Source: Deltaproteobacteria bacterium (lineage in GTDB: Bacteria > Desulfobacterota > BSN033 > UBA1163). From it: a DNA stretch of 64,000 nt. This document shows positions 4,022 to 34,920 of this stretch, piece by piece. The notes below the pieces were generated by a model. It was given only the letters and a program-made list of their open reading frames with translations. It was not told the DNA's origin and searched no databases. A program made the position numbers and the translations under genes. Location of the stretch: NCBI GenBank assembly GCA_018333535.1, contig JAGXTA010000046.1:20551-84550 (forward strand), read 5' to 3'. Numbering within the stretch: position 1 is the first letter of the stretch; every line of letters starts with the position of its first letter.

Positions 4022-5029
4022 CTACCAAACGCCGTCAATCTTTGCATGGCAATGCAGGCATTCCCCTCCCACCACCTCATTCCTGACAACCCTGAAACCC
4101 ATCCTTTCGATCACCCTTCGTCCACAATGGGGACATAAGGTATCCTCCCCTTCCTGCCCTGGGATATTACCGCAATAAACATATCGAAGCCCTGCCTTCA
4201 TCCCGATCTCCCTTGCCCGGTGAAGGGTTGCCGCTGGAGTTCTCGGAAGGTTGAGCATCTTATACGTGGGATAGAAGGCGGAGAGATGCCATGGAACCTC
4301 CGCCCCCAACGAGAGGATAAACCGGGCGATCTCTTCAAACTCTCTATCAGAATCGTTGAGGGTCGGAATGACGAGCGTGGTGATCTCCACCCAGATCCCC
4401 AACTCTTTCATCAATTTCAGGCTTTCGAGAACGGGCTTGAGCCTCGCTCCGCACACCTCCTTATAAAACTTCTCCTGAGAGCTCTTCAAATCGACATTCG
4501 CCCCATCGAGATAGGGCTGGATCGTTTTCAGAGCCTCCTCCGTCATATAGCCATTGGTGACAAAGACATTCCTGATCCCTTCCTGACTTGCCAGGACCGC
4601 TGTCTCATACGCATATTCAAAGTAAATGGTGGGTTCGGTATAGGTGTAGGAGATGGAACGGCATCGATTCTCCTTTGCGAGAGAAACGATCTTGGATGGC
4701 GGAACTACGGATCCATCAATTCTTTTTCCGTCGATCGGCATCTGGGAGATCTCATGATTCTGGCACTGGAGACAGTGAAAGTTACATCCCACCGTAGCCA
4801 TGGAGAAGGAGGTCGAACCGGGCAGGAGATGAAAAAGAGGCTTCTTCTCAATGGGGTCGACATTTAGGGAGATGGCCTTTCCGAAAACGAGACTGAAGAG
4901 TAGGCCCTCCCTGTTCTCCCTCACCCCGCAGATTCCACTTTTTGAAGGCGGGATGACACATCGATGACTGCAGAGGTGGCACTTGACCTTTCCCTCTTCC
5001 AAGGGACTATAAAGCATGGCCTCCTTCAT
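4022..5029 (-). CDS. AmmeMemoRadiSam-system radical SAM enzyme (AmrS-like)
   Basis: The N-terminal CHLCSHRC, the GICGVREN motif and the CNFHCLQCQNHEIS radical-SAM cluster motif fit pyruvate-formate-lyase-activase-like AmrS. Confidence 0.75.
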   Translation of the reverse strand: MKEAMLYSPLEEGKVKCHLCSHRCVIPPSKSGICGVRENREGLLFSLVFGKAISLNVDPIEKKPLFHLLPGSTSFSMATVGCNFHCLQCQNHEISQMPIDGKRIDGSVVPPSKIVSLAKENRCRSISYTYTEPTIYFEYAYETAVLASQEGIRNVFVTNGYMTEEALKTIQPYLDGANVDLKSSQEKFYKEVCGARLKPVLESLKLMKELGIWVEITTLVIPTLNDSDREFEEIARFILSLGAEVPWHLSAFYPTYKMLNLPRTPAATLHRAREIGMKAGLRYVYCGNIPGQEGEDTLCPHCGRRVIERMGFRVVRNEVVGGECLHCHAKIDGVW

Positions 5030-13846: not shown

Positions 13847-13878
13847 TTTAAGAGGATGCTGAAAAAGCCAACCGCCAT

Positions 13879-13947
13879 GTCACTCCCGCGAAAGCGGGAG
13901 TCCAGAAGACCTTTGAAAAACTGGATTCCTGCTTCCGCAGGAATGAC
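13879..13947. repeat. Structured inverted-repeat module IR-a (outer stem GTCAC.../...GTGAC enclosing two hairpins)
   Basis: The hairpins are TCCCGCgaaaGCGGGA and TCCTGCttccGCAGGA, within the outer stem GTCACTCC...GGAATGAC. Confidence 0.55.
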
Positions 13948-14077
13948 CTTCTTCAGCCAGAATGGACTTTTTCAGCAACCTCCTAATAAAACCTCCTAAT
14001 AAATCTTGACGAAGCCGTAGTTTTATGAGATGTTTACAGCACAATGATAGTTGGCACAAACCAAAGGAGAAACTGCG

Positions 14078-14521
14078 ATGGGCGCCCGTGACGAATTCGC
14101 AACCAAAGATGATTTAGAAAAATCCTTAGGAAAATTTAAAGAAGAGATTATCCATGAATTTCATATTGTTGCTGAGGGACTGACTGACCATATGAAACTT
14201 CTGGCTGAAGGCCATTCAGGTTTAGCCCAAAGACTTGACCGGGTGGAAACAAGGCTTGGCGGAGTAGAGATCAGACTTGATCGAACAGAAGCAGGTCAGT
14301 TGGGAATCGTTCAACGACTTGATCATATGGAAACAAGGTTTGACCATATGGAAACAAGGTTTGACCATATGGAAGCAGAAAACGTACGTCAGCACATGGA
14401 AACTCGCTCACTCATTAAACTCTCCTTTTCCGAACTGGACAACCGACTCTCCAGTCTGGAGTTACAGGTCAAAGAACTGCAAGAATGGAGAAAACAGGTC
14501 CAGGATAGGCTTCAAATTTAA
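14078..14521 (+). CDS. Hypothetical coiled-coil protein with tandem heptapeptide-like repeats (RLDHMETRFDHMETRFDHMEAE)
   Basis: RBS AAAGGAG lies 7 nt upstream of ATG 14078. Heptad-like charged repeats. Contains a 21-bp tandem DNA repeat. Confidence 0.5.
   Translation: MGARDEFATKDDLEKSLGKFKEEIIHEFHIVAEGLTDHMKLLAEGHSGLAQRLDRVETRLGGVEIRLDRTEAGQLGIVQRLDHMETRFDHMETRFDHMEAENVRQHMETRSLIKLSFSELDNRLSSLELQVKELQEWRKQVQDRLQI
14321..14383 (+). repeat. Tandem 21-bp repeat x3 (GACCATATGGAAACAAGGTTT) inside the coiled-coil ORF
   Basis: Seen directly in the sequence. The third unit is degenerate. Confidence 0.8.
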
Positions 14522-14805
14522 CATTCCTCTTTTAAACCATTATATCTATCCATCATTATCTTTTCCCTACCCATCAGAAAATACAACCCCTTATTTGCAT
14601 AGAAAATAGCTTCCTTAAATCCCTCCCCGCCTCCCTTTGCCCTCCAGTTCAGAGACCGCTCTGGGTCGGAGACCAAAGGGAGGTGTAATTATCCCCCTTT
14701 GCAAAACTGATCCTTACCCATAACCTGGGTTGCTGGACACAAGGGTTAAGTTGAATATTGTTAACAGGTCGATATCATTATTAATTTTTAAGTTTGTCAT
14801 TCCTG

Positions 14806-14864
14806 CGGAAGCAGGAATCCAGATGTTTCTGTTGGTCCTGGATTCCCGTTTTCACGGGAATGAC
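14806..14864. repeat. Structured inverted-repeat module IR-b (reverse complement of IR-a)
   Basis: The hairpins are TTCCTGCggaaGCAGGAA and TTCCCGttttcACGGGAA, within the outer stem GTCATTCC...GGAATGAC. Confidence 0.55.
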
Positions 14865-15311
14865 ACCTAAATACAGAATGCAAAACCTTCAATTACACCG
14901 GTCATGCCCCCCTTCCTTGTGTTCAGCCCCCCGACTTATGGGACACGGTTAGTTTGCAAAAGGGGGACTGAGGGGGATTTTCATGGTTCGTGCCTGTCCC
15001 GTATAAACGGGAGGTGTCGCTCCGTCATGAAGGATTGCTCTGAAATAAATCCCTCTGGGTGATGAGCTAACTTAAAATCAGAGGAAGTTTGCTACGATTT
15101 TCATGGTTTTTGGTAACCAATTGTACGTGGTCAATTTCCATGATTTTTCAGAATTATTCCCTAAGATTTCTTCCTGAATTATTCAGTTCCTTAATTTCTA
15201 AAAAAGGTGTATATTACAACCCATAAGCAGCGGAATGGTATTTTCTTCATAACAAGATAATTTTCATTTATTGATTTAAAAAATTCCTATTTGGTCATTG
15301 GAGAGCCTGGA

Positions 15312-15608
15312 GTGAAAAAATTATTGGGTTCACTACTTGGCATATTGGTTTTGATTGCAGGATTATACCTTGAATTTTTTGGGATTTATCATTCATTTAG
15401 CAGGCACGGTGTAAAGGATGGGTTAATATCTGTTTTTATTCCACCTTACGGATGGTACCGAGCAATTGAATATTGGTGGCATGATGATTATGCTGGTATA
15501 GAGACCATGAACCCAGTGTGGGAGGCTTTGGGCCCGACAACGATGGTGGATGGAGAAGAAAGGTACTCGGGGGATTCTTTTTTGATAGAAAGAGTATGGA
15601 GAGAATAG
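15312..15608 (+). CDS. Hypothetical small membrane protein
   Basis: GTG start preceded by GGAGAG. One long hydrophobic segment LLGSLLGILVLIAGLYLEFFGI. AT-rich island context. Confidence 0.3.
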   Translation: MKKLLGSLLGILVLIAGLYLEFFGIYHSFSRHGVKDGLISVFIPPYGWYRAIEYWWHDDYAGIETMNPVWEALGPTTMVDGEERYSGDSFLIERVWRE

Positions 15609-15862
15609 AAGGGAAGATCAAATTGTGGGTGAGGATCAAAATACATAATCCAATGGTTCGACGGGAAGGAAAAGAAACTTTTAGATGTGATGAAATCATC
15701 CTAAAATGGATTGTCGATTGTGAAACGAAGGAAGTAAAAACAGATTATATTGTGCTCTATTGGCAGGCGAAGAAACAGTATAGTAAAAAGAAAGATGATT
15801 TGAAGTGGCCTATAATGAAGAACACAAATGCTTATCTGATATACGAATTATTTTGTTTTTAG
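15596..15862 (+). CDS. Hypothetical protein
   Basis: ORF in the AT-rich island, taken from the internal ATG (MERIEGKIKLW...). No recognisable domain. Confidence 0.25.
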   Translation: MERIEGKIKLWVRIKIHNPMVRREGKETFRCDEIILKWIVDCETKEVKTDYIVLYWQAKKQYSKKKDDLKWPIMKNTNAYLIYELFCF

Positions 15863-16626
15863 TGATGAAAGGAGGTAAACTGATAAACTATTTTCAGGTC
15901 GATGGCCGAAGAGAGTAAGATTTGGGGTCTGAATTGACTTCAAGAGGAATGGGTAGCGCTTAACAAATCAGCGGATGGTTTACAAACACCGCTGAATTAA
16001 GTCTTCGGACGGAAGAGATAATGAAAGAAGATGATTACAAACTGACTAAGGCTCAAGGAACCGATTAAGAAGCAGAAAGGACGATGCGCTCTTTCTGGAG
16101 CCGAGATGATTTTTGAGAAGGAATACGGAAATCCAAATATTAACACCAGCGGGTGTCACCCGCTCTATGTGACTATCGACCATATCTCCCCAAATAATGA
16201 TAAATATGGGCACCAGCTTGTGTGCTATGATCTGAACGATCTATTACTCTGGCCAGAATAATGGTAACGTTTTATTCTGAGATAGCTTGCCCACTTCTGA
16301 CCGTATTTTATTGGCCAAAAGCACAATTTCAAAGACATTTTTGGAAGTACCCTTGATCTGTGTGCTCTATGATAAGGATGTTACCTAAATTCAGGCCAAG
16401 GTAGTAAAAGGCTGTCTTCCAAACAAAATTTTCAAGGAACTCCAGGTCACGGAAGCATGGCGACAACTGATGAACGAGTGGCGGTCGCTTGCTAAAAAAA
16501 GACCCTATGGACATAGAGGCGTTCAAGAAGGTGCTTGGAGACTAAAGGTTATTCCAACAGGCGGCTACCTGATCGCCGATAGATCCGGTTTCCAGTGAGC
16601 CGCAATAAACTCATTCGAGGTGATGT

Positions 16627-17337
16627 GTGGTTTTTAATGTAGGATTTTGGGACAGATTTATTCGGGATCAATTAATGCACCAAATAACTATTTTCGTTGA
16701 AAATATAGAGGGACGTCTTCTTCCAACATTTCATGATATAGAAAGTGAGGCTGAAAAAGTTCAAGAGCAGGAATGGAATAGATTGTGTTCCTCGTGTTCC
16801 TCCCCAGATATCGATCTTGCTGATTTAGCGGAGAAAGCCCGTGATGCTGGGATCGATTACTATATGATGGTTTCCGGCGTTAAACAATCCCTTTTGAATG
16901 TTTCGGCAACGAGCTTGTATCACCTTTTTGAGCAACAACTCTTATTTTTTTTACGCCGTGAAATCCTTCATCAATCTGAAGAAAATAATATTGATCTAAT
17001 AAAGATATCTATTTTAAAAGAGCGATGTCTCCAACACAACATCGACGTTGAGATATTTTCATCTTGGCAGACAATAAATGAAATGAGGCTTGTGGCTAAC
17101 ACCGTAAAGCATGCTGAAGGTAAATCTGCCATTGATCTTCGTAAAATCAGACCGGACCTCTTCAGAAATCCTGTCCTGGAAAAATTTGGTCCTAAACTTG
17201 GTGGTAACTTTCGTTGTTTGTATATGCCACTCGCAGGTGAAGATTTGTACCTATCAATTGAGGATCTGAAAAAATACGGTAGAGCTATTACAAGGTTCTG
17301 GGACGAAATGATTTCTGCTATGTACGAACGAAACTGA
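16627..17337 (+). CDS. Hypothetical protein (236 aa, no recognisable domain) in the accessory island
   Basis: Long ORF in an AT-rich region. Confidence 0.45.
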   Translation: MVFNVGFWDRFIRDQLMHQITIFVENIEGRLLPTFHDIESEAEKVQEQEWNRLCSSCSSPDIDLADLAEKARDAGIDYYMMVSGVKQSLLNVSATSLYHLFEQQLLFFLRREILHQSEENNIDLIKISILKERCLQHNIDVEIFSSWQTINEMRLVANTVKHAEGKSAIDLRKIRPDLFRNPVLEKFGPKLGGNFRCLYMPLAGEDLYLSIEDLKKYGRAITRFWDEMISAMYERN

Positions 17338-17479
17338 CTGAAATGCCTCACCTAAAGAATTATTCCAGCGGATGGATTACAGTCACTGCTGTTTTTAGCT
17401 GTTAATGTCCGCTTTCAAAGCGTAATCCTCATCCTCAAGGATCACACTCGGAACAACATTTGTAGGTGCTATAGGCACT

Positions 17480-17704
17480 CTGAAAACTGGAAAGTATAAA
17501 ATAGAGCTTCTGTTAACCCCGTTTGAAGGCCCCAGCATTCCTGCCTGTCGGCAGACAGGTATGCTTGAGGATGGTAGAAATAGAAAGCATCCCTGCCTGT
17601 CGGCAGACAGGAGCTCCTCATTTAGTGTGGGGTTAAACCCCTGCCTCTTCTAACGGGGTTTACTCGCCCTCCATCTGAATCTCAATCTTTTTGGGTTTCT
17701 CGCA
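17480..17704. repeat. Direct repeat DR1 (about 225 bp). It contains two CCTGCCTGTCGGCAGACAGG palindromes and a copy of the last 15 codons of mobB.
   Basis: Near-identical to 18428-18650. The end of the repeat encodes ...CEKPKKIEIQMEGE*, compared with ...IEIQIEGE* for authentic mobB. Confidence 0.75.
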
Positions 17705-17747
17705 ATGGGAGGAAGAATCTGTTGAGAAGAAATAGGTTTAACAACTC

Positions 17748-17778
17748 TTGACAATGATATCAGTAATGGTACTATAAT
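17748..17778 (+). promoter_or_regulatory. Near-consensus sigma-70 promoter upstream of hicA
   Basis: TTGACA, then a 17-19 nt spacer, then a -10 element that is either ACTATA (17-nt spacer) or TATAAT (19-nt spacer), ending about 5 nt before the hicA GTG start. Confidence 0.45.
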
Positions 17779-17781
17779 AAT

Positions 17782-18042
17782 GTGGCTAAAATAGATGATA
17801 TACTTGCACAAATTAAGCAAAATCCAAGAGATGTTCGATTCAGTGATTTGTGCAAGGTATGTAATCATTTTTTTGGGGAGCCTCGCCAAAGTGGGAGCAG
17901 TCATCGAATTTACAAAACCCCGTGGCAGGGTGATCCTCGAATAAATATCCAGAACCATAAAGGAAAGGCCAAGGCATATCAGGTGAAGCAGGTGCTATTG
18001 GCAATTGACAGATTGGAGGTAAGTCATGGCCCTGAAAAATGA
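17782..18042 (+). CDS. hicA: HicA-family toxin (mRNA interferase)
   Basis: Small basic protein with the ...SGSSHRIYKTPWQGDPRINIQNHKGK... motif typical of the HicA/YcfA fold. Overlaps the downstream hicB. Confidence 0.75.
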   Translation: MAKIDDILAQIKQNPRDVRFSDLCKVCNHFFGEPRQSGSSHRIYKTPWQGDPRINIQNHKGKAKAYQVKQVLLAIDRLEVSHGPEK

Positions 18043-18355
18043 TCGATATACCTATCGGGTAACCTGGTCTGAAGATGATAACGAGTATGTGGGTTTGTGC
18101 GCTGAATTTCCCAGCTTGAGTTGGCTGGCTAAGACTCCAGGTATAGCCTTAAAAGGAATCCGTAAATTAGTTGAAGATGTCGTGAAGGATATGCATAACG
18201 CAGGTGAAGCTGTTCCTGATCCAATCGCTTGCAGGCATTACAGTGGAAAATTCATAGTGCGGGTTCCTCCACAAGTTCATCGAAAACTCGCAATCCAAGC
18301 AGCCGAGTCTGGAGTCAGCCTGAACCGTCTTGCCAGTTCAAAGTTAAGTCAATAA
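18026..18355 (+). CDS. hicB: HicB-family antitoxin
   Basis: N-terminal HicB fold (YRVTWSEDDNEYVGLCAEFPSL). C-terminal RHH-like DNA-binding tail (VHRKLAIQAAESGVSLNRL). Confidence 0.75.
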   Translation: MALKNDRYTYRVTWSEDDNEYVGLCAEFPSLSWLAKTPGIALKGIRKLVEDVVKDMHNAGEAVPDPIACRHYSGKFIVRVPPQVHRKLAIQAAESGVSLNRLASSKLSQ

Positions 18356-18427
18356 AGCTCTGCGCCTATCATAACCTTCAATTCCTGAACATGGTTGCAG
18401 TAATGACTTGGAGGTGAAATACGCAAA

Positions 18428-18650
18428 CTGAAAACTGGAAAGCATAAAATAGATATCATGTTTACCCCGTTAGAAAGCCTCAGCATTCCTGCCTGTCGGC
18501 AGACAGGTATGCTGAGGATGGTAGAAATAGAAAGCATCCCTGCCTGCGGCAGGCAGGAGCTCCTTATTTAGGGCGAGGTCAAACCCCTGCCCTTTCTGAC
18601 GGGGTTTACTCGCCCTCAATCTGAATCTCAATCTTTTTGGGTTTCTCGCA
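18428..18650. repeat. Direct repeat DR2 (about 223 bp) overlapping the authentic 3' end of mobB
   Basis: See DR1. Together the repeats bracket the hicAB cassette. Confidence 0.75.
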
Positions 18651-19256
18651 TCCCTTCAATGAACGGACCATTCCCTTAATCGACCCTAACAGGAAATCTC
18701 TGATAAAAGGTTTTAACGGAACGGCCCTGTCATCTACCCTTAGAGTGATTTGTTCTTCCTTTTTTGACTTTAAAAACTTCTTTTCGATAAAATCACCCAC
18801 TCCTTTGACATCATCAAGAAAGAAGCAGGAGACCCCGACATTGAACTCCTTGTCCGATACAATGGCGATGAGGTTATCCTCTTTGGTGCAGAGAAGCTCC
18901 TTGTGCTTTTCCGTTCTGAAGATTTCGATCTTCGGTTGGACATCCTTTTTGTAGCCCTCTGAAAGAATAAGGTCTACATCCTGAACCAACTTGTCCCGGA
19001 TTTCATCCAACCGTAAATCCTTCTCCACATCCCGGATCAGCGCCACTTTGGCAGGAGAGGAGATGATCGTTGTATGGGCGCCTGCCTGCTTATGCCGCCA
19101 GCTATCCTTCCCCTCCCGGTCCACCTCAAACCCGTGAACATCGTGCTTCACGGTTGCGATCCGGTAACCCCTGCGGACTAGCTCAGGCAAAAGTTTCTCG
19201 ATAAATGTGGTCTTTCCGCTATCTGACTTACCAACAATAGAAATGATGGGAATCAC
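18606..19256 (-). CDS. mobB: Molybdopterin-guanine dinucleotide biosynthesis adapter protein MobB
   Basis: IVGKSDSGKTTFIEKL...VKH Walker-A region. Probable GTG start with RBS AAAGGAG 6 nt upstream. The ORF track extends a further 25 codons upstream. Confidence 0.85.
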   Translation of the reverse strand: MIPIISIVGKSDSGKTTFIEKLLPELVRRGYRIATVKHDVHGFEVDREGKDSWRHKQAGAHTTIISSPAKVALIRDVEKDLRLDEIRDKLVQDVDLILSEGYKKDVQPKIEIFRTEKHKELLCTKEDNLIAIVSDKEFNVGVSCFFLDDVKGVGDFIEKKFLKSKKEEQITLRVDDRAVPLKPFIRDFLLGSIKGMVRSLKGCEKPKKIEIQIEGE

Positions 19257-19262
19257 GCTAAA

Positions 19263-19375
19263 CTCCTTTGGAATATTGGAATGTTGGAACAATGGAATAA
19301 TGGGGAAGGCTGAGAAGATTCTTTTCGACACAACATTCCATCATTCCATAATTCCATTCTTCCATGATCAAAAGT
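19263..19375. promoter_or_regulatory. Array of inverted TGGAAT/ATTCCA repeats between moeA and mobB
   Basis: GGAATATTGGAATGTTGGAACAATGGAATAATGG faces CATTCCATCATTCCATAATTCCATTCTTCC. This is either a long imperfect hairpin or an array of protein-binding sites. Confidence 0.45.
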
Positions 19376-20582
19376 TTCGTTCCAGCAATTGCACCTTCAC
19401 TTTCTCCCCTGCCCTGACAATCTCTTGGCTTTCGGGGATGACGATAAGGCCATTGGCCCTGACCATGGATCTCAATATCCCTGACCCCTGTGGACCTGTC
19501 GTTGTCACCGAATAGCCGTCGTTTTCAAATGAGACCATGGCCCGGATAAAATGTTTTTTCCCCGGCTCTTTACGAATTTCCTCCTTTAGAACAGCCTCGA
19601 TAACAGGCTGAAAGATTTGCCGATGGCCCATCATCTTCAAGAGCGATGGCCTTACAAACTGTTCAAAGGTGATCATGGAGGAAACAGGGTTTCCCGGAAG
19701 GCTGAAGGCTGGCTTCTTATCAAACATCCAGAAAGCCACGGGTTTCCCTGGTTTCATTGCGACTCTCCAGAATATCATCTCCACGCCCAGTTCCTTCAGG
19801 ACATCCCTGACGAAATCATAATCCCCTACGGAGACACCCGCTGACGAAATAAAAACATCAGACCGAAGCCCCTGAAGAATCTTCTTTTTAATCTCATCTT
19901 TTTGGTCTTTCGCAATTCCCAATTGAATCGGGATCGCTCCGCACTCCCTGACCTGGGCGGCCAATGTGTAGGAATTGCTGGAGACAATCTTCACCCCATC
20001 CAGGCTCTCACCCACATCCACCAGTTCCTCACCAGTACAGAGGACCGCCACTGATGGCCTTTGATAAACCGAGACGAATGACCTTCCCATAGAGGCAAGC
20101 ATCCCGATTTCTGATGGACGGATGATATCCCCTTTGGTGATCACCCGATCTCCCCTCTTTACATCCTCCCCTGCCCTTCGGATGTACCCACCGGGAAAAC
20201 CAGCCTTCAGAATGATGACAAAACCGTTTCCCCTTTCCGTCTCCTCAACAGGCACAACCGCATCAGCGCCTTTTGGGATGGGGGCGCCGGTCATAATTCT
20301 TATGGCCTGACCCTTTTGGACTGTTTTTTCCGAAATGAATCCAGCGCGAAGATCTTCAATCACTTCTAAGCGGACAGGATTCTTTTCAGAAGCATCCGGA
20401 ATATCTTCATACCTGACCGCATAACCGTCCATCCCCGAATTATCATAAGGGGGAAGATCACGAGGGGCAATCATATCCTCCGCAATCACCCGGCCCAGGG
20501 CATCCAGAATGGATACCTTCTCAAACCCCATGGGCTGGATGTGAGAAAGGGTTTTATCTAAGGCTTCTTCTACGGTGATCAT
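19368..20582 (-). CDS. moeA: Molybdopterin molybdotransferase MoeA
   Basis: 404 aa. MoeA N-terminal and MoCF-biosynthesis domains. SGMDGYAV motif. Confidence 0.9.
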   Translation of the reverse strand: MITVEEALDKTLSHIQPMGFEKVSILDALGRVIAEDMIAPRDLPPYDNSGMDGYAVRYEDIPDASEKNPVRLEVIEDLRAGFISEKTVQKGQAIRIMTGAPIPKGADAVVPVEETERGNGFVIILKAGFPGGYIRRAGEDVKRGDRVITKGDIIRPSEIGMLASMGRSFVSVYQRPSVAVLCTGEELVDVGESLDGVKIVSSNSYTLAAQVRECGAIPIQLGIAKDQKDEIKKKILQGLRSDVFISSAGVSVGDYDFVRDVLKELGVEMIFWRVAMKPGKPVAFWMFDKKPAFSLPGNPVSSMITFEQFVRPSLLKMMGHRQIFQPVIEAVLKEEIRKEPGKKHFIRAMVSFENDGYSVTTTGPQGSGILRSMVRANGLIVIPESQEIVRAGEKVKVQLLERNF

Positions 20583-21292: not shown

Positions 21293-21532
21293 ATGAAAGT
21301 AGGTTTTGCAGTTCAGACGAACGAAGGAATGGAAAGCAGGGTTTATGATCATTTTGGCTCGGCCCCGGCATTCATCATTGTCGATACCGAAGGGAAAGAG
21401 GTCTTAACAATTAATAATAAGGACTTGCACCATCTTCACGGCGCATGCAATCCAATCATGGCGCTTGATGGGAAGAGCGTCGATGCAATGGTCGTGGGTG
21501 GCATAGGAGCAGGCGCATTGACGAAGTCAGAC
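21293..21532 (+). pseudogene. NifX/NafY-like (dinitrogenase FeMo-cofactor biosynthesis domain) gene, N-terminal fragment interrupted by an IS200/IS605 insertion
   Basis: RBS AAGGAGA. MKVGFAVQTNEG...HFGSAPAFIIVD...MVVGGIGAGAL matches the intact paralogs at 25201 and 25587. The sequence after GAGALTK diverges into IS-end hairpins. Confidence 0.7.
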
Positions 21533-22170
21533 ACCCCCCGCAAAGCGGGTGGCTTGATGAGCGGGGCTGCCTCAAAGGCAGTCGACCCGATAGCTAAACG
21601 TTGCGCTAAAGCGCACCTCAGTTGCCAAATTAAAAATGTTCTCCCGTTCCATCCGCTTCCTCTTGATCGCGGATGTATTGGCGAACTTGCTCTATCTGAA
21701 ATCCAACGGTGGATACCGCATATCCCCGAGCCCAAAGATGTTCCCCTGTGAAATTCCTCTCCTTGCCGCATAGCTGCCTTGAGATCGCAATCGCACTCTT
21801 CCCTTTCAAAAAACCGATCACAGAAGCAACCGCATACTTTGGGGGAATCGCAATACACACATGAACATGATCGGGCATCAGATGACCTTCCAGAATTTGG
21901 CATTCTTTCTGCCGAGCCAAGGCATGAAATATTTCACCTAGGTGGCGTCGTGCCTGCCCAAACAGGGCTCTCCGTCTCTTCTTTGGGATAAACACCACAT
22001 GGTATTTGCAATCCCATTTCGAATGAGATAAGCTTCGATAACCCTGAAAACTTTCTTCCATAACATCCTCCTGTGCCGTTTGCTTTTCTCATCAAGCCAC
22101 GGGAGGATGTTATGCTCAACGGTCAAACCTTTTCAAGTCGCACTGGTAAAACCAGTGGCTTACCTAAATT
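21533..22170. mobile_element. IS200/IS605-family insertion sequence (TnpA only)
   Basis: Contains the HuH Y1 transposase ORF. Subterminal hairpins CCCGCaaaGCGGG, CTGCCtcaaaGGCAG and TGCGCtaaaGCGCA lie at one end, and CACTGGtaaaaCCAGTG at the other. The element splits the NifX-like gene. Confidence 0.8.
21630..22061 (-). CDS. tnpA: IS200/IS605 family transposase TnpA (HuH Y1)
   Basis: 143 aa with SKWDCKYHVVFIPKKRR and the HVHVCIAIPPKY HuH motif. Confidence 0.9.
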   Translation of the reverse strand: MEESFQGYRSLSHSKWDCKYHVVFIPKKRRRALFGQARRHLGEIFHALARQKECQILEGHLMPDHVHVCIAIPPKYAVASVIGFLKGKSAIAISRQLCGKERNFTGEHLWARGYAVSTVGFQIEQVRQYIRDQEEADGTGEHF

Positions 22171-26889: not shown

Positions 26890-27047
26890 TGGCAATTTGT
26901 AGTGATTGCATGGGGGCCATCGATGGAACCCAACCCCCTAACCCCTTTAGGGGAGAAGGGAGACCTGCCTACCGGCAGGCATGGGGAGTATTTCTTGCGC
27001 TATACTCTGTGCGCTATGCGGTTTTGTAGGTATAGGAGGTGATAAAA

Positions 27048-34853: not shown

Positions 34854-34920
34854 TTTCCTCTCTCTCCCCCATGCGCCTGCCTGCCGGTAGGCAGGGGAGA
34901 GGGCGAGGGTGAGGGGGAAT

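Follow-up and report, generated by a model that had tools for sequence, protein, structure and literature searches.

Genomic islands driven by an integrase typically target the 3' end of a gene and regenerate it, and the identity segments of known attachment (att) sites are far shorter than 245 bp; the target duplications of transposons measure about 2-15 bp. The toxin-antitoxin (TA) pair hicAB takes its name from "hif contiguous", after the hif pilus locus of Haemophilus influenzae. In general, hicAB loci are regarded as horizontally transferred (PMC6327479, PMC11594946). Here we describe a hicAB pair beside the molybdenum-cofactor gene mobB in a 64,000-nucleotide stretch of a Deltaproteobacteria bacterium genome (contig JAGXTA010000046.1, positions 20,551 to 84,550), hereafter called the window, whose source is a metagenome-assembled genome of the Syntrophaceae (Thermodesulfobacteriota). 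The pair lies between two direct copies of a 245-bp block that carries the 3' end of mobB, in an arrangement that we read, with some reserve, as an insertion-duplication made by homologous recombination.

The copy distal to mobB, DR1 (17460..17704, 245 nt), was delimited by blastn against the proximal copy, DR2 (18408..18650, 243 nt; blastn and alignments), which runs on into the functional gene. They are direct repeats of 89.0% identity (E=8e-88, blastn within the 64-kb window), and blastn found no third copy of the 245-nt repeat in the window. An earlier note on this DNA had described near-identical repeats at 17480-17704 and 18428-18650; the repeats are real but slightly longer than that, and the last 15 mobB codons with which they were said to end are actually 14 codons plus the stop, 45 nt at the end of each repeat. 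On the right the repeats stop sharply, both finishing ...TTTCTCGCA on the same last base. Past it, DR1 passes into the unrelated sequence ATGGGAGG and DR2 continues as TCCCTTCA into mobB, and no homology was found past either repeat edge. The junctions gave no clear case of microhomology, an 8-nt CCTTCAAT match being not significant (p about 0.1). The pseudo 3' end of mobB in DR1 (17660..17704, minus strand; 14 codons plus stop, reading CEKPKKIEIQMEGE*) differs from the authentic end by 1 mismatch in 45 nt; in reverse complement DR1 reads ...IEIQMEGE* and DR2 reads ...IEIQIEGE*, as the earlier note had it. mobB itself (18606..19256, minus strand) is intact and encodes 216 aa from a GTG preceded by AAGGAG, with matches to PF03205 (E=2.5e-49) and TIGR00176 (143.6 bits against a cut-off of 76.2); public assemblies contain a gene call with exactly its extent in the window.

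The alignment of DR1 with DR2 holds 25 mismatches and 2 gap columns, which are spread unevenly, the mismatches falling patchily over four segments (14/69, 2/83, 8/48 and 1/45). In addition, three substitutions common to the distal pseudo-mobB ends of other lineages are absent from DR1. Because of this patchy divergence and the missing substitutions, parts of both repeats in the window's lineage look re-homogenized, as by gene conversion. The arrangement is not an assembly artefact, because it is found unchanged in two other assemblies, where repeats, insert and proteins are 100% identical, and also in three diverged lineages.

The foreign insert between the repeats (17705..18407, plus strand) is 703 nt long, is 100% identical in L001-L003 (L numbers designate the loci compared) and has the same junctions in L084, L088 and L090. 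Its G+C content is 42.7%, against 46.2% for the window and 47-50% for mobB, moeA and modC, and it codes for hicAB alone. The near-consensus promoter that the earlier note had placed immediately before hicA could be confirmed as TTGACA-16 nt-TACTAT with an extended -10 TG (17748..17775, plus strand), which matches 10/12 positions and is invariant in the four occupied alleles. It contains an 8-bp palindrome, TGATATCA, a possible HicB operator by analogy with published HicB behavior (PMC11594946). hicA (17782..18042, plus strand; 86 aa, GTG start) overlaps hicB (18026..18355, plus strand; 109 aa) by 17 nt. HicB matches PF05534 (E=5.8e-15, 55.4 bits against a cut-off of 21) and is named HicB family antitoxin in the NCBI (MBS3918300.1) and JGI records. 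The match of the 86-aa open reading frame (ORF) to HicA_toxin PF07927 is weak (E=0.003, 18.1 bits, below the Pfam cut-off of 27); it is nevertheless a probable HicA, with the expected position and overlap, and plasmid loci homologous at about 70% DNA identity are annotated as "toxin HicA" followed by "HicB family antitoxin". No NCBIfam, PADLOC or PDB sequence match was found for HicA, and no PADLOC or PDB sequence match for HicB. A single-sequence AlphaFold model of HicA was poor (predicted local distance difference test, pLDDT, 57), with the order helix-helix-three strands-helix. The layout is that of a type II HicAB system, with the toxin gene upstream of and overlapping the antitoxin gene under its own promoter. 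hicA starts with GTG in the window and with ATG in relatives such as L093, 6-7 nt past the TACTAT -10 hexamer, and therefore the transcript is probably leaderless.

The outer parts of the insert vary among the occupied alleles. The window and L090 miss 95 nt upstream of the hicA promoter (at 17739/17740) that are present in L088 (3751-3806) and L084; this deletion lies between AACAA direct repeats and removes the left 10-mer CGTTATGTGCA together with a hairpin, CACCGGAT...ATCCGGTT. In L088 and L084 some 90 nt of additional donor sequence stand upstream of the module, so what was inserted at mobB is a fragment rather than a clean module. The space from hicB to the proximal repeat holds, in L088 (about 4474-4617) and L090 (about 2789-2932), a 143-nt insertion resembling a miniature inverted-repeat transposable element (MITE), with terminal inverted repeats TCGTAAAAAGTC / GACTTTTTACGA and a flanking 9-bp duplication CAGTAATGA; neither the window nor L084 has this insertion.

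For comparison with relatives, a metagenome collection was scanned with a 31-nt pattern consisting of the mobB stop codon and the first hairpin arm, and look-ups of MobB variants added further alleles. The pattern hit 7 loci, all at mobB, and in the metagenome-wide scan and the other loci fetched the full repeat was found at mobB only. The alternative that the earlier note had named as refuting its reading, copies of a genome-wide repetitive extragenic palindromic (REP) element without a boundary role and with the full repeat at many unrelated loci, thus found no support (7/7 scan loci at mobB). The repeat-hicAB-repeat structure occurs in three diverged Syntrophaceae lineages (L084, L088 and L090), and one full repeat without hicAB in at least five (L085, L086/L131, L087, L089 and L132), which are the hicAB-less, single-repeat alleles that the earlier note had proposed to look for. 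Other one-copy forms have a different interior (L126-L130) or are truncated after the first arm (L124 and L125), and in the nearest species-representative genome, L004, the contig breaks off after one partial copy.

The four occupied alleles share a base-identical junction, ...TTTCTC(G/T)CA followed by ATGGGAGGAAGAATCTGTTGAGAAGAAATAGGTTT, and the insert-to-repeat junction is identical too; therefore the structure arose once. Over 616 nt, hicAB of L088 and L084 is 98.1% and 96.1% identical to that of the window, whereas the corresponding values for the 3' 390 nt of mobB are 86.2% and 86.4%; the common ancestor of the cassette region is therefore much more recent than that of the host genes. In a tree of the same 390 nt, occupied and empty alleles interleave, the occupied ones falling in three sub-clades and the sister of the window, L086, being empty. 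We may conclude that hicAB at mobB is a presence/absence polymorphism among related Syntrophaceae lineages and that the hicAB segment is much younger than its hosts.

The repeat copies themselves bear on how the duplication arose. The proximal copies differ from the one-copy alleles at 8/53 sites in their left part and at 4/138 sites elsewhere (Fisher p=0.004), while the distal copies show the opposite trend, 2/52 against 11/126, which is not significant. A single crossover between two diverged versions of the block would produce just such a reciprocal mosaic. Our preferred reading, which we hold at a probability of about 55%, is that a resident mobB-terminator block and a diverged, hicAB-linked copy of it underwent a single-crossover insertion-duplication by host homologous recombination, followed by exchange, loss and gene conversion. 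A foreign fragment of ~0.7-0.8 kb with a self-promoted hicA-hicB would thereby have come to lie between two 245-bp blocks. The crossover partners would have been the resident block and the diverged block on a circularized or sister DNA molecule, joined by host enzymes with no dedicated recombinase; a simple source would be a relative with the hicAB fragment directly left of a single block, which circularized and integrated into the block of another lineage. The duplication would keep mobB whole and give each of the convergent units, hicAB and mobB, its own copy of the terminator block. The structure could then spread to relatives by homologous recombination through the repeat and mobB and be lost precisely by recombination between the two repeats, while the addiction behavior of HicAB would favor retention. 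What the earlier note had proposed, an integration or duplication of hicAB that regenerates the mobB end, is supported as an insertion with duplication that leaves mobB complete; its "site-specific" part is unproven, with no integrase linked.

Several observations weigh against this reading. No circular intermediate, no donor allele with hicAB beside a single repeat and no isogenic empty site with a 100% identical mobB were recovered. The mosaic reaches significance in only one of the two copies, and it is drawn from three occupied and four empty alleles that are themselves recombining. Deletion between the repeats leaves the same hybrid pattern as integration, so the direction of each event cannot be read from the pattern, and the empty alleles could equally be deletion products. 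The terminator function given to the repeat rests on sequence, and a terminator consensus scan flagged the small palindromes only. Finally, in L085 a truncated XerD-like tyrosine recombinase abuts the repeat.

Of the competing explanations, the one that we rate highest is a one-step illegitimate insertion, in which template switching or staggered-break repair copied a donor hicAB and synthesis resumed 245 nt behind the break with no homologous partner; we consider it unlikely. It would suit an insert as untidy as this one, which resembles an arbitrary fragment in its extra upstream donor sequence (L088 and L084) and degenerate right end, as well as the two sharp junctions without extended homology and the fact that a recombinase was not detected. 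However, copies made in situ should begin identical and diverge evenly, and the left 53 sites of the proximal copies are about five times more diverged from the one-copy alleles than the other 138; a clear microhomology at the junctions is lacking as well. Less likely still, in our judgment, is site-specific integration, in which the repeat would be an attachment site served in trans by a tyrosine recombinase and hicAB an integrase-less, cis-mobilizable mini-element carrying the mobB end. The targeting and regeneration of a gene 3' end recall integrase-driven islands, the DNA left of the repeat differs between lineages, as would be seen where integration recurs at a hot spot, the apparent crossover is confined to one position, adjoining CTG^TT(T/A)ACCCC, and the L085 fragment stands directly beside the repeat. 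But the element, its immediate surroundings and the parts of the window examined yielded no integrase: a profile built from 50 XerD-like recombinases detected none in the window, and 29 other window ORFs contained no recombinase domain save one IS200-type Y1_Tnp. A tRNA-Gly gene stands about 0.4 kb from the L085 fragment as well, and the family of this fragment is multi-copy, often fragmented, and scores far below the IntI cut-offs; by protein search, NCBIfam and context, this lead was rejected as not an integron integrase, with tRNA-Gly beside it and a family without a link to the repeat in other loci. Moreover, hicAB is the only cargo between two repeat copies (4 occupied and >8 one-copy alleles), the insert is not a clean unit, and in place of a short identical attL/attR core there is a 245-nt repeat of 11% divergence. 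A diverged duplication of this length is better fitted by homologous single-crossover integration than by an att core.

It is quite improbable that the whole clade ancestrally had repeat-hicAB-repeat and repeatedly lost it by deletion, with hicAB unmoved between lineages. Deletion between 245-bp direct repeats is easy and leaves a hybrid single copy, as the one-copy alleles look, and the three sub-clades of occupied alleles agree with such losses, but hicAB is 96-98% identical where mobB is at 86%, the deeper relatives L005, L006 and L009 have no repeat, and the switch point is identical in all four aligned one-copy alleles. The lowest probability, a very small one, goes to the idea that the repeats are genome-wide REP or MITE copies or that an integron integrase placed hicAB as a cassette. 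Related short palindromes do occur at four other intergenic sites of the window, and elsewhere the hicAB module is found in co-oriented arrays with inverted 10-mers and attC-like hairpins after it. Against this, the full 245-bp block stands at mobB only and takes in part of the mobB coding sequence; a strict scan of window 14001-19000 and of five array loci detected no R''/R' core pairs; none of six hicAB contexts has an integron integrase IntI within 10 kb; integron insertion leaves its target unduplicated; and the sequence downstream of hicB differs between contexts, unlike a cassette's own attC. The REP/MITE reading is largely refuted, and the integron reading may describe the source of the module, not the cause of the duplication. 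A transposable element with target-site duplication was also rejected, since the duplication is 245 bp long and exists in two copies only, both at mobB.

The earlier note had counted two copies of a CCTGCC...GGCAGG palindrome in each repeat. This is right for DR1, where the exact 20-nt CCTGCCTGTCGGCAGACAGG occurs at 17540..17559 (copy 1, inserted between AGCATT and TATGC) and 17592..17611 (copy 2, between GCATC and AGCTCC); in DR2, copy 1 is exact (18488..18507) but copy 2 is a 19-nt variant, CCTGCCTGCGGCAGGCAGG (18539..18557). No chance matches to the 20-mer are expected. Across the alleles, the 20 nt of CCTGCCTGTCGGCAGACAGG are either precisely present or precisely absent at two sites, AGCATT^TATGC and GCATC^AGCTCC. 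Both window repeats and the empty allele L089 have the two sites filled, and L087 has site 1 alone filled; both sites are empty in the two repeats of L088, in the two of L090 (the proximal one only partly recovered) and in L004, and site 1 is also empty in the distal copy of L084. In L085 and L086 the segment between the two palindrome copies is deleted. Altogether, eight related hairpins occur in the 64 kb, the four in the repeats and four intergenic ones at 26964, 34876, 39198 and 39230, with about 0.03 expected by chance. As REP-like insertions of 20 nt, the palindromes are independent features and serve neither as boundaries nor as recognition sites, because both repeats of the occupied L088 and L090 are without them and some empty alleles have them, and the integrase or recombinase that the earlier note supposed to recognize them could not be linked to the repeat. 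Within the mobB repeat they cause no target duplication, and one sits at the apex of an existing hairpin (CAGCAT-TT-ATGCTG); those at 34876 and 39230 lie inside longer CCCTCTCCCC/GGGGAGAGGG stems. We also considered a REP-associated tyrosine transposase (RAYT) as their agent, and the nearby Y1 transposase, 3 kb away, was rejected, being of IS200 type with terminal hairpins unrelated to the palindromes; no RAYT flanked by CCTGCC...GGCAGG palindromes was found.

Apart from these insertions, the core of the repeat is an 18-bp stem, GTAAACCCCGTTAGAAAG / CTTTCTAACGGGGTTTAC, which starts at the mobB stop codon, closes a variable interior and is followed by T-rich sequence on both strands. In DR1 the left arm (17512..17528) pairs with the right arm (17647..17663), which overlaps the pseudo stop codon, over 17 nt at 88% complementarity; in DR2 the left arm, GTTTACCCCGTTAGAAAG (18460..18477), pairs with 18592..18609, which contains the mobB stop codon. 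That stop (18606-18611) thus stands inside the first hairpin arm, and MobB of this clade ends ...IEIQIEGE*. Predicted folding is strong, with z=-5.6 for DR2 and z=-4.7 for the palindrome-free copy of L088, which has the same closing stem, and L126 and L129 keep both arms and the outer tail around a wholly different interior. Rfam gave nothing credible in the repeat (gathering score over the whole window; E<=1 over 17350-18750). We infer from these features that the 245-bp block is the mobB 3' end joined to a large, probably bidirectional, hairpin terminator. In the deeper relatives L005, L006 and L009, mobB ends ...IEIQIED* and is followed by unrelated sequence without the repeat. L005 lacks the block although the 3' part of its mobB is 96% identical to that of L004; therefore the block was gained, or exchanged, as a unit.

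Upstream of mobB lies moeA (19368..20582, minus strand), with MoeA_N, MoCF_biosynth and MoeA_C domains. On the other side, the stretch from modC to DR1 (13850-17459) is G+C-poor (38-42%) and has few long ORFs, among them a 236-aa protein without a family match (MBS3918299.1), for which no PADLOC match was found, a weakly Adhesin_E-like one of 114 aa and a coiled-coil one of 156 aa. To the left of the block the genes vary in nearly every lineage (helicase/csp, nitroreductase/IS21, TA pairs/IS, peptidases, tRNA-Gly). Since unrelated genes replace 13850-17459 in relatives, the modABC-mobB region is a variable zone, bounded on its right by the mobB repeat. Left of its distal repeat, L084 (6047-9046) carries a RelE-like/HTH antitoxin pair, a PIN/RHH antitoxin pair and an insertion sequence (IS) with a DDE transposase; TA modules accumulate at this variable zone in some lineages. 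Beyond moeA, an IS200-type element (21528-22150) with a 143-aa Y1 transposase (21630-22061, minus strand; PF01797, E=1.8e-34) splits a gene of the Nitro_FeMo-Co family, whose N-terminal part runs from 21293 and whose C-terminal part resumes near 22155.

Outside mobB, HicB homologues number in the thousands, with >100 database clusters at 86-94% identity, and the 90% cluster of HicB itself spans Nitrospira, Desulfobacterales and Syntrophaceae metagenome-assembled genomes. A ~0.65-kb module that extends from the -35 box to ~8 nt beyond the hicB stop is found again, at 84-91% nucleotide identity, in many unrelated contexts; from this recurrence and from HicB proteins >90% identical in other phyla, it follows that hicAB is horizontally mobile. 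In several contexts the module is bordered by inverted 10-mers, (C/T)GTTATGTGCA at its left edge and TGCACATAA(C/T) at its right. At mobB the left one is kept in L088 and L084 and lost in the window and L090, and the right one is degenerate; in the window it reads TGCGC-CTATC-ATAAC (18361..18375, plus strand), where other contexts have TGCACATAAC/T. In L091-L123, hicAB stands within co-oriented arrays of small genes separated by recurring inter-gene elements, its neighbors being TA pairs (BrnT/BrnA, CopG, PIN), restriction-modification genes and HEPN/AbiU2. CATAAC...GTTATG hairpins by the module in other contexts fold in an attC-like manner in 2/4 (z=-3.4 and -2.8). Long direct repeats around hicAB in L091, L093/L120 and L106 proved to be other recurring modules or paralogous small genes, not target-end duplications, and viral contigs scanned with the hicAB promoter gave no matches. 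The inverted 10-mers resemble Xer half-sites; a Xer/dif-module reading was rejected, the inspected flanks containing no complete 11-6-11 site. It is a rather improbable suggestion, but one that we find worth stating, that the hicAB module is a tiny non-autonomous mobile unit of ~0.65 kb with inverted 10-mers GTTATGTGCA ... TGCACATAAC/T, moved across bacterial phyla at about 90% nucleotide identity by an integron-like or Xer-like recombination system. If this were true, the capture of hicAB at the structured mobB terminator with a 245-bp duplication would be no isolated accident but one case of a targeting of hairpin-rich gene ends that can recur.

What hicAB shows at mobB is a gain/loss polymorphism of an ordinary and well-documented kind; it represents neither a new mobile system nor a new class of mobile element. 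Its value is that of a clean natural example of how a recombinase-less TA pair settles in a chromosome without damaging its target gene: with a duplicated gene end and terminator, mobB stays intact, the convergent units would be insulated, and ordinary homologous recombination could both undo the insertion and pass it on. The conspicuous palindromes, a separate layer of small REP-like insertions, call for caution in reading a locus from its letters. The point of most interest beyond this locus is that a near-identical hicAB module, with inverted ends, has spread through unrelated genomes.

Compared with the systems described so far, the 20-nt hairpins are like REP elements and REP doublets forming hairpins (REPINs) in being short and intergenic, with several related copies in 64 kb and precise presence/absence insertions; they are single short hairpins rather than REP doublets, and no RAYT flanked by them was found. 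The hicAB of the H. influenzae hif pilus locus is likewise a chromosomal accessory insertion beside housekeeping or pilus genes. With the TA cassettes of chromosomal integrons (relBE, higBA and parDE of the Vibrio superintegron), the module shares the character of a small self-promoted TA operon travelling as a unit, and elsewhere also the co-oriented arrays, the inverted ends and sometimes an attC-like hairpin after it. It differs from them in that neither an IntI within 10 kb nor canonical R''/R' pairs were found and that the downstream hairpin is not conserved with it, and in the window it sits at mobB with its left 10-mer lost. Genomic islands at gene 3' ends and cis-mobilizable elements (CIMEs) offer the same duplicated gene 3' end, single-copy empty sites and integrase-less cargo between repeats; unlike them, the mobB locus has no repeat-linked integrase, a 245-bp repeat at 11% divergence in place of a short identical core, one kind of cargo and unclean insert edges. 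There remains the Campbell-type insertion-duplication known from suicide vectors that carry a gene fragment. The hicAB case differs from it in being natural, in having a cargo of only about 0.7 kb and in that no replicon or circle was observed. In both, the flanking direct repeats are the shared homology, the target gene is kept intact via its 3' end, the two copies form a reciprocal mosaic, and recombination between the repeats can reversibly remove the insert.

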